From Patescibacteria group bacterium (lineage in GTDB: Bacteria; Patescibacteriota; Saccharimonadia; Saccharimonadales; CAYUUR01): DNA of 64,000 nt. The stretch lies in NCBI GenBank assembly GCA_052034685.1, contig JBPOIH010000011.1, positions 17,910 to 81,909 on the forward strand, written 5' to 3'. Position numbers and translations under genes: made by a program. A model generated the notes under the pieces. It ran no database searches, was not told where the DNA came from, and saw only the letters and a program-made list of their open reading frames with translations. This document shows positions 4,871 to 62,540 of the stretch, one piece after another; positions within the stretch are counted from its first letter, which is position 1, and the number at the start of each line of letters is the position of its first letter.

Positions 4871-4996
4871 AAAAATGCCGCGTCTCTTTGCGCGATACTC
4901 TAATTATAGTACAATAGCCCCTGATATTAACAGAGATGTTTTGCTTGTGCTTGATTATCTCTTTGTGTGTATCTGTACTTTTCTAGGTTCCCTATC

Positions 4997-5328
4997 GCGG
5001 GCGAGTGGTGGGTTTGTGCGAAGCACAACAAGAAAACAATTGTATACGCGCCGCGTAACTCGTCCGCAAAGACGCTAAACTAACCTTCACAATTCAGTTC
5101 ATAATCAAGGGCGAGTGGCGGGTCTGTGTGAAACACAGCCCAAGAAAAATTGTATACGCGCCGCGTAACTCGTCCGCAAAGACGCTAAACTAACCTTCAC
5201 AACTAGACTACATAACCGCGGGCGAGTGGCGGGTTTGTGTGCAACACAACAAGAAAGTAATTGTATACGCGCCGCGTAACTCGTCCGCAAAGACACTAAA
5301 CTATGCTTAACAACTAGACTATATTACC
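4997..5328 (+). repeat. three tandem ~111-bp units (4997-5106, 5107-5217, 5218-5328) directly upstream of tRNA-Leu, each beginning with a copy of the tRNA-Leu 5' end
   Basis: Each unit starts (G/A)(C/A)GGGCGAGTGG(C/T)GG, as the tRNA does. It then has a ~30-nt insert where the D-loop would be, followed by GTATACGCGC and CGCGTAACTCGTCCGC. The periods of 110/111/111 bp were hand-counted. Confidence 0.85.
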
Positions 5329-5330
5329 GC

Positions 5331-5415
5331 GGGCGAGTGGCGGAACTGGTATACGCGCACGACTCAAAATCGTGTTCCTTACGGATTGAGGGTTCGATTC
5401 CCTCCTCGCCCACCA
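5331..5415 (+). tRNA. tRNA-Leu (anticodon CAA)
   Basis: Acceptor GGGCGAG/CTCGCCC, D arm GCGGAACTGGTATACGC, and anticodon stem-loop CACGA-CTCAAAA-TCGTG. There is a long variable arm, T arm GAGGG-TTCGATT-CCCTC, discriminator A and an encoded CCA. Confidence 0.9.
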
Positions 5416-5578
5416 ATCTAAATGCCGGCCTGTGTGCCGGCTTTTAGATTGGTGAATGAAGCGAATCGAACCCGTACGGCGCAGCCGGGGTTCGTTCATG
5501 AGGAGCTCACGCAGGAGCTTGCTCTGAGTAAGCGACGAAATGCGAGGGCAAAGCCCGAGGTCCCTCCTCGCCCACCAA
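5416..5578 (+). repeat. tRNA-downstream element, Leu copy, ending in an 18-nt copy of the tRNA-Leu 3' end
   Basis: TCCCTCCTCGCCCACCAA occurs at 5399-5416 (tRNA 3' end) and again at 5561-5578. The interior GGTTCGTTCA...CGCAGGAGCTTGCTCTGAG resembles the Ser and Asn copies. Confidence 0.6.
5424..5445 (+). terminator. rho-independent terminator after tRNA-Leu
   Basis: GCCGGC-ctgtgt-GCCGGC followed by TTTT. Confidence 0.7.
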
Positions 5579-13097: not shown

Positions 13098-13241
13098 TGG
13101 CGGAGAGAGAGGGGTAACGCACAGCCGCGTCCGTTCTCGGAGCGAGCTCCTGCGAGCGGACTTGCTGACCGAACCTGGCTCGAATCCCTTTTCTTCAGAG
13201 AGAAGAAAAACGGCCACACTTTTGTGTGACCATTTCTCTCC
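13098..13241 (-). repeat. tRNA-downstream element, Ser copy, ending in a 16-nt copy of the tRNA-Ser 3' end
   Basis: TGGCGGAGAGAGAGGG occurs at 13242-13257 (tRNA 3' end, plus-strand reading) and again at 13098-13113. The interior contains GACCGAACC and GGAGCGAGCTCCTGCGAG, as do the other copies. Confidence 0.6.
13203..13231 (-). terminator. rho-independent terminator after tRNA-Ser
   Basis: The minus strand reads GGTCACAC-AAAA-GTGTGGCC followed by GTTTTTCTTCT. Confidence 0.65.
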
Positions 13242-13333
13242 TGGCGGAGAGAGAGGGATTCGAACCCTCGAGACGTTTTGCAACGCCTACACGCTTTCCA
13301 AGCGTGCTCCTTCAGCCACTCGGACACCTCTCC
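13242..13333 (-). tRNA. tRNA-Ser (anticodon GGA)
   Basis: The minus strand reads GGAGAGGTGTCCGAGTGGCTGAAGGAGCACGCTTGGAAAGCGTG...GAGGGTTCGAATCCCTCTCTCTCCGCCA. The anticodon loop is TTGGAAA, with a long variable arm and an encoded CCA. Confidence 0.9.
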
Positions 13334-40588: not shown

Positions 40589-40767
40589 TGGCCCCCAGGG
40601 GTCGGGTAATGCACATCTTGCACTCGTTCTCGGAGTAAACTCCTGCGGGCGAGCTGGATGACCGAACCAACAACTTGCCTCAGCTGAAGCTGCTGCGTTG
40701 CCGATTCAAATCAAAGCCCAAGAGAATGAAAAAAGACCCTCACATGAGGATCTTTTTTCATTGGCTC
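40589..40767 (-). repeat. tRNA-downstream element, copy B; its last 108 bp form the left direct repeat of the RiPP islet
   Basis: 40660-40767 matches 49173-49280 at 107 of 108 positions (hand-aligned). This includes the terminator hairpin and the first 6 nt of the tRNA-Asn 3' end. Confidence 0.8.
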
Positions 40768-40881
40768 TCCCTAGTGGACGTACTTCGCAACTATTCAATT
40801 ACAGATTTTAGTTGTCCTACGGGCATTATGATTAACTATCTGTATTCAAAAGCTTCTTGCCCATAGATAAATCTGGCTGCT

Positions 40882-49080: not shown

Positions 49081-49090
49081 GTTCTAAACT

Positions 49091-49274
49091 TGGCTCCCGG
49101 GGTCGGATAATGCACGGCTGCAGCCATGCTCCCCGGCTTCCTTGCAGGAGGCCGGGTGTGCGTGGCTTGGTCGACCGAACCAACAACTTGCTTCAGCTGA
49201 AGCTGCTGCGTTGCCGATTCAAATCAAAGCCCAAGAGAATGAAAAAAGACCCTCACATGAGGATCTTTTTTCAT
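49091..49274 (-). repeat. tRNA-downstream element, Asn copy A (contains the tRNA-Asn terminator and the right direct repeat)
   Basis: It begins with TGGCTCCCGGGGTCGGA, a 17-nt copy of the tRNA-Asn 3' end at 49275-49291. The terminator is AGATCCTCA/TGAGGGTCT flanked by A6/T6. Confidence 0.8.
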
Positions 49275-49349
49275 TGGCTCCCGGGGTCGGATTCGAACCG
49301 ACAACCTCGAAGTTAACAGCTTCTTGCTCCACCATTGAGCTACCCGGGA
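49275..49349 (-). tRNA. tRNA-Asn (anticodon GUU)
   Basis: The minus strand reads TCCCGGGTAGCTCAATGGTGGAGCAAGAAGCTGTTAACTTCGAGGTTGTCGGTTCGAATCCGACCCCGGGAGCCA. It is 75 nt, the anticodon loop is CTGTTAA, and CCA is encoded. Confidence 0.9.
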
Positions 49350-61047: not shown

Positions 61048-61614
61048 TTACTCGGCGTTTGACGTATAGCCGCCGTATTTGTTCTGCTCAGGCGTGCAAG
61101 ACTTCCAGAGGCCCTTTTCTTCTGTCCTGGCGGTCGTTTGTAAGGCGCGGAATTCATCGGCCTTGGTGAAAGGAAAGCTAGTGTAGGCAAAGCCGTAGCC
61201 CTGAGCAATAATCTCGGCGTTGACGAGCCTACCATCTGGCAGGTAGATGTAGCGAAGTAATCGGTTATAACGGTCGCGGTTGGTGTTGAGCGGATCGGCC
61301 TCCAGACGAACCGCTTGCTCGCCAATGAGGTCTTTGGTGAACTGGCTGGCAACTTTGCCAAAGCACTGCACGGCCTTGCGGGGGTCTTGTGTCTCTGGCG
61401 TGTCAACACCAATAAACCGTATCTTTTCCTGCCTCCCACTCATATCTACCGTAATGGTGTCGCCGTCGTTGAAGTCAGTAACTGTATAAAACCCTGCTGG
61501 TGCTACCGCGCGCTGGGCAGGCTCTTCTATTAACCCATTGATTTTTGGCCCGACCAACAACACGATTGCAAATACAACCAATCCGACGAGTTGCTTCTTC
61601 TGACGTTTTTGCAT
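61048..61614 (-). CDS. thermonuclease (SNase-like), membrane anchored
   Basis: Reads DGDTITV...IRFIGVDTPE...RYNRLLRYIY. Confidence 0.8.
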   Translation of the reverse strand: MQKRQKKQLVGLVVFAIVLLVGPKINGLIEEPAQRAVAPAGFYTVTDFNDGDTITVDMSGRQEKIRFIGVDTPETQDPRKAVQCFGKVASQFTKDLIGEQAVRLEADPLNTNRDRYNRLLRYIYLPDGRLVNAEIIAQGYGFAYTSFPFTKADEFRALQTTARTEEKGLWKSCTPEQNKYGGYTSNAE

Positions 61615-61699
61615 ACCCCTAGCCTACGCCGCTTACGTTTAAACGCAAGCAGTAGGCTTGAAAATCAACACCACAGTATTAAGTAGTGCCGAGGTTGGA

Positions 61700-61899
61700 T
61701 TAGTAATCGATACCTTTGTTGGCGAGAAACTTATCGTCGAAGTGACGATCCATGAGAGGGGCACATCCCCTCTCATCGCGCCGGCAAAATCGTGCGAGAT
61801 TTTGTCGGGCTGCTCTCCCCTAACTCGAGGAGCTCTTAGTAGTCAATACCTTTATTAGCAAGGAATTTATCATCAAAGTGGTGTTTGACCGCACCCCTC
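61700..61899 (-). repeat. two decayed copies (61700-61753, 61846-61899) of the last 17 codons + stop of the cobO-like gene
   Basis: The copies translate as (M)DRHFDDKFLANKGIDY* and VKHHFDDKFLANKGIDY*, against the gene's IKHHFDDKFLANKGIDY*. The nucleotide differences are mostly synonymous transitions. Confidence 0.75.
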
Positions 61900-61970
61900 A
61901 AAATTCATGATTTTGTGGGGACCCCGCTTGAAAATCAAACACCACAGTACAGATTAGTAACGAGCTAAAC

Positions 61971-62540
61971 TCAGTAATCGATACCTTTATTGGCAAGGAA
62001 TTTATCGTCGAAGTGGTGCTTGATTTTGGTCATGTTGGTGGCGATGTCGACTTTTGGCAGTAGTTTCTCTGGGAAGTTTCGTCCCGTCATGCAGAGGCTT
62101 GTTTTGGCGTGCCTATCTGTAATGAGCTTTTCCATATCACTAACGGCCAACAGCCCGTCATTAACGGCGTTATTAATCTCGTCACATATGACAAGATCAA
62201 ACTTACCGCTCGTAGCGGCTTTGTAGGCTTCTGCATACGTATCGGTGGCGGCTTGTTTGTGTTCGTCTTCTGTAATTCCCTTGGCGCTGAGTTCGCCAGC
62301 GTCGTAGAACCCTTTACCGCCCTTATAAAAGTAGAGTTTTTCTTTGAACAGCGGTTGGATTTTGGCAATAAAACGATGCTCGCCAACTTCCCAGTGCTTA
62401 ATAAACTGAATAAATGCCACCGACCAATCAGTACCAAGTGCTCGTGTCATGAGTCCCATACTGGCACTGGTTTTGCCTTTACTTTCTCCAGTGTAGACGA
62501 TAATAACGCTGTCTTTTTGTTTGTAATCTTCAAATGCCAT
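61971..62540 (-). CDS. cobO: cob(I)yrinic acid a,c-diamide adenosyltransferase (CobA/CobO/BtuR family)
   Basis: Reads IIVYTGESKGKTSASMGLMTRALG...IQFIK...LVICDEINNAV...MTGRNFP...IKHHFD. Confidence 0.8.
   Translation of the reverse strand: MAFEDYKQKDSVIIVYTGESKGKTSASMGLMTRALGTDWSVAFIQFIKHWEVGEHRFIAKIQPLFKEKLYFYKGGKGFYDAGELSAKGITEDEHKQAATDTYAEAYKAATSGKFDLVICDEINNAVNDGLLAVSDMEKLITDRHAKTSLCMTGRNFPEKLLPKVDIATNMTKIKHHFDDKFLANKGIDY

Follow-up and report, generated by a model that had tools for sequence, protein, structure and literature searches.

The stretch of DNA analysed here (the window, 64,000 nucleotides (nt)) comes from a Saccharibacteria (TM7) genome and carries on its minus strand a cobO gene, which encodes an ATP:corrinoid adenosyltransferase of the CobA/CobO/BtuR family. 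The match of the protein to Pfam family PF02572 spans the profile through its last position (172/172), and the cobO tail therefore belongs to the domain. Between cobO and the staphylococcal-nuclease-like gene that follows it is an intergenic gap of 356 nt that houses two additional copies of the last 17 codons and stop of cobO. These copies and their spacers probably record two successive site-specific insertions at the cobO 3′ end, and probably three. The order of cobO and the nuclease gene is common to the window and to L180, L183, L186, and L188 (L-numbers are labels of compared genome and metagenome loci); the conserved downstream neighbor thus fixes the ancestral right flank. The features of the locus are listed in the direction of transcription.

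61971–62540, minus strand: target gene, CobA/CobO/BtuR-family ATP:corrinoid adenosyltransferase, 189 aa (open reading frame (ORF); Pfam PF02572, E=1e-46)
62013–62027, minus strand: L segment, sequence AAAATCAAGCACCAC with codons K-I-K-H-H; lies on the left border of the duplication and is the complement of the arm at 61931–61945
61971–62024, minus strand: copy A, working tail IKHHFDDKFLANKGIDY, TGA stop at 61971–61973 (repeat analysis)
61890–61970, minus strand: type-1 spacer, 81 nt, between copies A and B (homologous units elsewhere; absent from L082)
61836–61889, minus strand: copy B, tail VKHHFDDKFLANKGIDY, TAA stop (ORF and repeat analysis)
61754–61835, minus strand: type-2 spacer, 82 nt, between copies B and C (homologous units elsewhere)
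61700–61753, minus strand: copy C, MDRHFDDKFLANKGIDY, TAA stop (repeat analysis)
61656–61699, minus strand: half of an older type-1-like unit after copy C (repeats; degenerate counterpart in L180)
61631–61650, minus strand: palindrome GCTTGCGTTTAAACGTAAGC directly upstream of the nuclease gene start (inverted repeat; nearly identical in L180)
61048–61614, minus strand: staphylococcal-nuclease-like gene, conserved downstream neighbor (Pfam PF00565)

Tail copies and spacers at the cobO 3′ end

The three tails recur with a start-to-start period of 135/136 nt. Their 14-codon core, HFDDKFLANKGIDY, specifies the same amino acids in A, B, and C; the number of base differences is five between A and B and nine between B and C, all at synonymous third positions, and the nine core nucleotide differences among the three copies are all silent third-position transitions (C/T or A/G). 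Copy A was presumably supplied by the type-1 unit, and copy B is the former tail, moved aside by that unit. Tail homology in copy C is limited to 61700–61744 (HFDDKFLANKGIDY and TAA). The original prediction for this DNA gave the position of copy C as found here but that of copy B ten too high (61846–61899 for 61836–61889), and the hairpins and the 23-nt repeat that it described were recovered in the repeat analysis. It had also taken the "MDR" codons of copy C for decayed "IKH"; these positions (61745–61753) are actually the conserved right end of the type-2 unit, CATGGATCGYCAC, which is also present in L085, and ATCGTC (61744–61749) is the inverted repeat of GACGAT (61733–61738).

The half-unit that follows copy C comprises a 21-nt linker, then the arm GTGGTGTTGATTTT and CAAGC (the 23-nt string), and is without the GGGG hairpin. 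The 23-nt string is located at 61656–61678 and 61926–61949 and is part of a 78-nt repeat with 79% identity that lies behind A and C at equal offset. The palindrome at 61631–61650 is the native conserved leader hairpin of the nuclease gene; it is separate from the inserts and shared with L180. The copies are not themselves a conserved leader of that gene.

In each spacer, the target sequence found at the border of the duplication recurs in inverted orientation. The type-1 spacer of the window is composed of a variable linker (61946–61970), the inverted arm L′ GTGGTGTTTGATTTT (61931–61945), CAAGC, GGGGT, the hairpin CCCCACAAAAT/ATTTTGAGGGG at 61894–61920 (arms 61894–61904 and 61910–61920, with one mismatch), and TGCG. 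The arm GTGGTGTTTGATTTT is the reverse complement of cobO's own K-I-K-H-H codons; with the L segment it forms an inverted repeat of 15 nt (93%) in which the RNA fold pairs 15 bp, and this pairing is found in all type-1 units. The type-2 spacer of the window includes GGGGAGAGCAGCCCGAC (61804–61820), hairpin 1 (61781–61808; arms 61781–61791 and 61798–61808, 91% complementary), and hairpin 2, ATGAGAGGGG/CCCCTCTCAT (61752–61776), the arms of which (61752–61761 and 61767–61776) are perfectly complementary. The two spacers are unrelated to each other, yet they lie within one array; their motifs are confined to cobO ends, both in the window and in the compared loci, and are unique within the window. 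The 81–82-nt window spacers encode no ORF, and their predicted folds exceed those of shuffled sequence in stability (z −3.3 to −5.1). In a comparison with Rfam 15, the spacers reached no family gathering score (the best sub-threshold regional match was 17.5 bits versus 79), and only three tRNAs in the window scored above threshold. A promoter and terminator scan revealed no consensus promoter or canonical terminator in the spacers.

Several other identities were considered for the tail copies and rejected. As small ORFs they lack conserved start codons, L045 and L084 having no in-frame start and L037 having lost the stop. Phase variation or alternative C termini are not indicated, every copy encoding one and the same peptide. 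A diversity-generating retroelement was likewise dismissed: the changes are not confined to adenines, all nine core differences being silent C/T or A/G, and no reverse transcriptase is among the family matches listed for the window.

Close relatives and the order of insertion

L082, which is from another sample, has a CobO protein identical to that of the window. The two loci differ at 1 of 671 upstream bases and at none of the 172 codons of the gene body, as compared with 9 of the 17 tail codons (Fisher P=3e-11); the tail differences consist of nine synonymous sites and the stop codon. The resulting tail divergence, 0.53, falls in the between-species range of 0.38–0.53 and is at the level of whole genes between species with CobO ≤88% identical. 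In the window, the replaced tract begins within ~5 nt of the repeat border, and the 521 nt before it are unchanged. Within the window's clade the tail peptide does not vary, and any donor in the clade would therefore give purely synonymous differences. L082 is without the gene-proximal unit, its gene passing directly into the spacer that is found between B and C in the window. Its tail is a mosaic of B-like and C-like segments. The left part, right part, and downstream flank of copy B are those of the working tail of L082, and codons 8–12 of copy B agree with copy A, which fits a short gene-conversion patch. The aligned region of L081 is identical to the window.

The nearest other species, represented by L180 and L181 (95% CobO identity and the same gene order), has a single tail and no extra unit. 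The 85 nt after this tail align base for base with the window segment from copy C to the nuclease gene, taking in the near-identical palindrome and the nuclease start codon, and the one gene end of L180/L181 lines up with copy C. In L183 and L184 (88% identity) the site is empty and merely 18 nt separate cobO from the nuclease gene. The loci thus form a three-state series: no unit (L180/L181), type 2 only (L082), and type 1 plus type 2 (the window). Because L082 lacks the gene-proximal unit and the L180/L181 tail aligns with C, the alignments place copy C at the ancestral gene-end position, with the B–C unit next and the A–B unit last. They support growth of the array by serial insertion at the gene end, each insertion displacing the earlier tail downstream, with the oldest tail farthest out. 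Of the serial integration and loss proposed originally, serial insertion with displaced originals is upheld by the three-state series, but the loss of full elements is not, since no integrase-bearing element was found at the site in the 80 genome loci, the five metagenome arrays, or the viral contigs. The relatives do not share the same three copies, and a refutation of the original prediction on that ground fails.

A separate observation concerns L182 (3090–3662) and L183 (3089–3658), two contigs whose CobO proteins are the same. Gene calling gives one intact nuclease gene in L183/L184 but two short ORFs in L182, where there is one additional T immediately before the start codon; either a frameshift variant or an error of assembly may lie behind this.

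Arrays were gathered from the 80 closest genome loci (up to 10 kb each side of cobO) and by a two-copy pattern scan of metagenomes. The genome loci are from Saccharibacteria or Patescibacteria metagenome-assembled genomes, except for three labeled only "bacterium" and one labeled Burkholderiaceae. Five of them contain arrays: L024 (three copies), L035, L037, L045, and L033 (with a 1.3-kb insert). Five of the ten matches in the metagenome scan are also arrays (L084, L085, L087, L089, and L090); the other five are chance matches in unrelated genes. At least 10 other Saccharibacteria, scattered in distribution, have the window's spacer types at their cobO ends, and the junctions are the same. Of the 80 species-level relatives, 75 have a single tail and nothing resembling the spacers. 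Genomes with arrays lie dispersed over the CobO tree, and each has closer relatives that are array-free.

Adjacent copies (10 pairs from nine genomes) differ by 45 synonymous and 3 non-synonymous changes. Synonymous sites make up a fraction of 0.17, which puts the binomial P at 4e-31 (2e-18 when transitions alone are allowed); decay in place would be expected to give ~2.4 non-synonymous changes per synonymous change, versus the 3:45 observed. The young pairs of L045, L084, and L089 differ at one core site only, and distal copies are almost without non-synonymous change even at saturated synonymous divergence. Decay is seen in copy 3 of L024, in L037 (stop codon lost), and in L035 (G>S). The synonymous-only pattern and the tail-only replacement in L082 support the view that the copies are different functional alleles rather than products of decay in place, as had been predicted. 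Simple tandem duplication by slippage does not fit this ratio, nor the absence of the spacer from 75 of 80 single-copy relatives.

Spacer families, other gene ends, and larger inserts

Type-1 units (74–82 nt) are present in the window, L024 (two), L035, L037, L087, L089, and L090. They share a plan consisting of a ~25-nt variable linker, the arm GTGGTGTTTGATTTT, CAARC-like bases, GGGGTCCCC, an A/T-rich hairpin closed by GGGG, 4–5 nt, and the next copy. The junction is fixed, the distal copy opening G-T-N where the gene has the Ile codon A-T-N (8/8 units). The arm, inner hairpin, and start of the next copy make up one imperfect palindrome of ~70 nt. In the seven gene-adjacent units, L′ forms 11–15 of 15 Watson-Crick pairs with the gene-proximal copy; in L024 all 15 are formed although gene and arm both depart from the consensus. 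The linkers are unrelated between genomes. Type-2 units (77–89 nt; window, L045, L084, L085, and L082) comprise GGGGWGAGCAGCCSGA, hairpin 1, GCGWTGAGAGGGG-loop-CCCCTYTCA, and the right end ATCGYC, which is the inverted repeat of GACGAT in the next copy. The stem sequence of hairpin 1 varies by genome with retention of pairing, five pairs being changed on both sides. Both families thus have conserved motifs and stems beside freely varying linkers and loops, and a constant length within each family. Because of this equal length, the fixed junctions, and the conserved stems beside varying linkers, the spacers do not look like scars of independent deletions, and because 75 of 80 relatives have one copy and neither spacer they are inserts. 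By these sequence criteria, the spacers are discrete elements and not random deletion scars.

The layout is not restricted to cobO. A scan of 1963 ORFs for a downstream copy of their last 14 residues identified only 12 cobO loci (two of them from the window's own array), one smpB gene, and one NUDIX gene. The smpB array of L024 (15900–16260) has 156-nt tandem units made up of a 71-nt tail and an 85-nt spacer. Two 71-nt tails are 100% identical, the third copy is partial, and the two spacers differ in their hairpin sequences; the spacer opens with an inverted copy of the border sequence (ATTTGTCGTATTT versus AAATACGACAAG). L024 carries both this array and the triple cobO array. In L028 (14130–15100), the last ~45 nt of a NUDIX gene recur 922 nt downstream, the repeats flanking a 0.9-kb insert with a single reverse-strand gene of 197 aa, and a tRNA-Asn gene follows directly.

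Copies of tRNA 3′ ends, which the original prediction had noted in the window, are indeed present at three tRNA genes, each of which has its own last 17–19 nt repeated 127–167 nt downstream (sequence repeats).

5331–5578, plus strand: tRNA-Leu and its 3′-end copy
13098–13333, minus strand: tRNA-Ser and its 3′-end copy
49090–49349, minus strand: tRNA-Asn and its 3′-end copy

The order in the window is tRNA gene, terminator-like hairpin, structured spacer, and 3′-end copy. The sequence CTCGCAGGAGCTTGCTCCGAGAA, which is present in the first of the two L024 smpB spacers, also occurs in the spacers after tRNA-Leu and tRNA-Ser; these two spacers share CGCAGGAGCTYGCTCYGAG with the L024 smpB spacer as well, and all three share GGTTCGKTC. 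The same arrangement at tRNA-Asn is found in five other genomes (L001, L007, L017, L027, and L071). In the tRNA spacers, inverted and direct copies of the T-arm region make a hairpin that follows each genome's own tRNA (GTCGG in L007, GCCAG in L027, and GCCGG in L071). The general layout is therefore target end, short linker or terminator, inverted border copy, family-specific hairpins, and target 3′-end copy. The phenomenon is general across Saccharibacteria gene ends.

Two further observations were made at tRNA-related repeats. Upstream of tRNA-Leu, at 4990–5415 (plus strand), there are three additional tandem units of 110–111 nt, each opening with the tRNA 5′ end (GCGGGCGAGTGGCGG). The ARAGORN call of a transfer-messenger RNA (tmRNA) at 5109–5415 covers these tRNA-Leu repeats and ends at the tRNA-Leu 3′ end; it is probably false because Rfam finds only tRNA there. 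At 40600–40790 (minus strand) there is an orphan paralogue of the element downstream of tRNA-Asn, the first ~115 nt of which are nearly identical to 49160–49275. It is flanked by degenerate tRNA-Asn 3′ ends, GGGAGAGCCA and ACCCGACCCCTGGGGGCCA, with no tRNA gene there; its neighbors are an APH-like kinase and a hydrolase, and no recombinase was found there.

Larger inserts also occur at the cobO end. In L033 (10567–11906), a single-gene insert of 1.3 kb lies between 60-nt tail repeats, and its gene (410 aa) belongs to a rare ParB_N-like family of 12 proteins. This gene is convergent with cobO and overlaps the cobO stop codon in L033, L177 (3147–5245), and L178 (4001–5227); tail repeats flank it in L033 only, L177 and L178 being without a tail duplicate. 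In L177 an HNH/zf-His-Me homing-endonuclease-like gene stands beside it. In L186 (3088–4410), cobO is followed by an unrelated 440-aa gene with no family match; at that place L188, whose CobO protein is the same, has an 86-aa ORF. No recombinase and no type-1 or type-2 sequence is present in the larger inserts of L033, L177, L178, and L186. The ParB_N-like protein was rejected as the moving enzyme, as it is missing from every type-1 or type-2 locus. The cobO end is an insertion hot spot, and a full integrative element was not found there.

Explanations and known systems

We favor, with a probability of roughly 0.55, the view that the units are miniature, non-autonomous, site-specific insertion elements that bring a replacement tail and are moved by a recombinase encoded elsewhere. 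The inserts would be gene-less and hairpin-rich and of two families (type 1, ~80 nt; type 2, ~82 nt), each plus a cobO tail copy, so that every element would bear its own allele of the last 15–17 codons. Recombination would take place at the left border of the tail stretch (A|TCAA for type 1 and about CAC|TTC for type 2), joining the gene body to the element's tail with the ORF intact and pushing the earlier tail downstream as a silent fragment. Starting from the ancestral copy C, the type-2 unit would have been inserted next and the type-1 unit last, and short gene-conversion patches between neighboring copies would later have blurred the alleles. The units themselves would be mobile, moved in trans by a tyrosine recombinase of the host or of a helper element, with the hairpins as the recognition structure. 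Once a unit is excised or single-stranded, pairing between L′ and the copy carried by the element itself could give a stem with the target-site sequence, and by analogy such a conserved target-sequence hairpin may act as a folded-DNA recombination substrate.

A number of results weigh against this explanation. No integrase, resolvase, transposase, or reverse transcriptase was present among the family matches listed for window ORFs of at least 90 aa, and no recombinase was recognized in the genes downstream of six other arrays, which are ordinary neighbors (an AAA_33 kinase, a nuclease, and glycosyltransferases). The proposed enzyme is hypothetical because no recombinase was recognized in the window or near the arrays. 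A full element inserted at the site, which was to be looked for according to the original prediction, was not encountered: no integrase-bearing element occurs at the cobO end in the 80 loci (to 10 kb each side), the five metagenome arrays, or viral contigs, and neither an excised form nor an autonomous relative was found in the same material. In the viral contigs, the degenerate tail-peptide pattern had no matches, and the type-2 left motif had 84 chance-level matches, none with the remaining unit. As a transfer vehicle, a 135-bp double-stranded circle is mechanically implausible. The known units number only 12–13. The type-1 linkers, being unrelated between genomes, give no sign of recent transfer within the sample; units of great age that selection had retained for a host function would present much the same picture. 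The reconstruction at this locus also has weak points, as the L082 contig stops inside the type-2 spacer, so that a distal copy is unseen, and copy B differs from the L082 tail at six positions, which requires an extra conversion patch and two point changes.

It is doubtful whether one may go a step further and see in the units an undescribed Saccharibacteria class of gene-less miniature integrating elements, ~80–160 nt long, that integrate as folded single strands. Each such element would consist of a replacement copy of the target's last 17–70 nt (cobO, smpB, or tRNA), an inverted crossover copy, and one or two family-specific hairpins. Pairing of the inverted crossover copy with the direct one would create a hairpin whose sequence is that of the target duplex in the chromosome. 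Uptake of the DNA could be by natural competence, with a host recombinase as the acting enzyme; integron attC and the CTX phage provide the analogy. If true, this would explain both the missing integrase and the family core CGCAGGAGCTYGCTCCGAGAA that is shared at unrelated targets. It is unlikely that the spacers are instead the fused ends of large integrative elements (prophages or islands with an integrase and a cobO tail) that were inserted serially and then reduced by internal deletion. A replacement tail with a displaced synonymous pseudogene tail is the icd/icdC pattern of e14 (PMC13626634), decay to remnants flanked by attachment (att) sites and tandem accretion are documented (PMC5704250), partial tRNAs occur in tycheposon islands (bioRxiv 10.1101/2020.12.28.424599), and larger inserts exist at the site itself (1.3 kb in L033, and extra genes after cobO in L186, L177, and L178). 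Those inserts, however, carry a ParB_N-like, HNH, or unknown gene and neither a recombinase nor type-1/type-2 sequence. Moreover, independent deletions would not yield the same products of 74–82 and 77–89 nt with the same junctions at a CobO identity of ~70–75%, there is no integrase within 10 kb on either side of cobO in the 80 loci or near any array, and the viral contigs contain nothing related.

Saccharibacteria are naturally competent, and the arrays could also have formed with no dedicated machinery, through duplication by slippage or template switching followed by homologous recombination or gene conversion with DNA from related strains. Conversion between copies does occur, as is seen from the mosaic L082 tail and the A-like patch in copy B, and the single core difference in the young pairs of L045, L084, and L089, together with the identical 71-nt smpB tails beside different spacers in L024, is what such a process would give. 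This origin is nevertheless very unlikely, as the single-copy relatives are without spacer sequence and so offer nothing to duplicate, the type-1 and type-2 spacers within one array are unrelated, and the same spacer families appear in distant genomes with different downstream flanks. In addition, homologous recombination lacks ends as sharp and repeatable as a tract that starts ~5 nt from the border with no change in 521 nt upstream. A structured RNA or DNA in the cobO 3′ region that benefits the host, which might protect the transcript end or insulate cobO from the nuclease gene, with the distal copies kept as part of the structure or as periodic working tails through frequent loss and regain of units, would agree with the predicted fold stability (z −3.3 to −5.1), with stems conserved beside varying loops and linkers, and with the compensatory changes in hairpin 1 of type 2. 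It would also agree with the predicted pairing of the arm with the coding K-I-K-H-H segment of the same transcript and with distal copies that show nearly no non-synonymous change at saturated synonymous divergence. A host function is nonetheless highly improbable when the spacers are missing from >90% of relatives, even from the nearest, whose gene order is the same, when the spacers contain no Rfam family, canonical terminator, or promoter, and when distal copies decay (copy 3 of L024, the lost stop of L037, and G>S in L035); the arrival of a foreign tail allele together with the unit would stay unexplained.

An intermediate strain and a relative with an empty site show that the end of an essential-looking gene in an ultra-small genome of the candidate phyla radiation is rewritten again and again, by inserts too small to encode anything. 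Plasticity of such genomes can therefore come about with no integrase or island left behind as a trace. At the 3′ ends of cobO, smpB, and tRNA genes, the units mark natural landing sites that preserve the gene, and they suggest a recombination activity usable for genetics in Saccharibacteria, where tools are scarce. Tail alleles and unit number are sharp strain markers, and copies of tails and tRNA ends can mislead annotation, as in the ARAGORN tmRNA call over the tRNA-Leu repeats. If the target-mimicking hairpin is a recombination substrate, folded-DNA recombination would be extended beyond integrons and filamentous phages.

Among known models, 3′-end integration of the e14 type with a replacement tail appears to fit best. 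The e14 element encodes its own integrase. It is a prophage that is excised as a 15.1-kb deletion, and its excision from or insertion in icd appears as a cluster of synonymous "SNPs" (single-nucleotide polymorphisms) at the gene end (PMC13626634, citing Hill et al. 1989). As with e14 or phage 21 at icd, the cobO insert lies inside the 3′ end of a protein gene, the replacement tail keeps the protein working, and the original tail is left as a downstream fragment; the two tails differ mostly synonymously, and occupied and empty sites are found among close relatives. Unlike e14, the cobO inserts extend only 74–89 nt beyond the tail copy, are gene-less, and are stacked two or three deep, with two unrelated spacer families at one gene end and no integrase found.

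Cis-mobilizable elements (CIMEs) are kilobase-scale, decayed integrative and conjugative elements (ICEs) or integrative and mobilizable elements (IMEs) with recognizable integrase-encoding relatives. The cobO units resemble CIMEs and the tandem accretion at fda and tRNA 3′ ends in streptococci in being att-flanked and without genes for integration and transfer, but they measure ~135 nt in all and are conserved as such across genera, and no autonomous ICE or IME relative with the same att specificity occurs in the 80 genome loci, the five metagenome arrays, or the viral contigs. In partial-tRNA arrays, each integration in the series is recorded by a 3′-end copy, older elements being shifted outward by newer ones (bioRxiv 10.1101/2020.12.28.424599). 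The tRNA-Leu, tRNA-Ser, and tRNA-Asn genes of the window each have a 3′-end copy like those in the partial-tRNA arrays of tycheposons; whereas the latter are islands with integrases and cargo, the window copies lie 127–167 nt after the tRNA with only a conserved structured spacer between.

A further comparison is with the attC sites of integrons, including clusters of attC sites lacking integrases (CALIN), and with the folded single-strand attP of the CTX phage. The ~70-nt imperfect palindrome of type 1 (L′, inner hairpin, and L) has, as these sites do, an outer stem made of recombination-target sequence, and as in attC and CALIN arrays, structure is conserved above sequence and no integrase lies near the arrays. 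Unlike an integron, there is no adjoining IntI or attI, the "cassettes" have no ORF except the tail copy, and the target is the end of a protein gene rather than attI or dif. Of the attC consensus RYYYAAC/GTTRRRY, the R′ side fits two of eight type-1 units (L024 unit 2 and L087, GTTAAGC) and the R″ side none; the remaining R′ sides are GTCAAAC, GTCAAGC, or GTAAGGC, and the R″ side is GTTTGAT or GCTTAAT. An integron cassette array was rejected on these ends and on the lack of IntI/attI beside the array.

Miniature inverted-repeat transposable elements (MITEs) are miniature non-autonomous elements. Like them, the cobO units are small, non-coding, structured, and patchy in distribution and presumably rely on an enzyme encoded elsewhere. 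They differ from MITEs in that they use one specific target and are not spread in many copies through the genome, and in that their direct repeat, 45–54 nt long, arrives with the element as a diverged allele and does not arise as a short duplication at insertion. Relative to the known systems, the novelty lies in an insert that is miniature in its own right and conserved in that form, in the presence of at least two families for one target, and in the inverted crossover copy that the insert carries.

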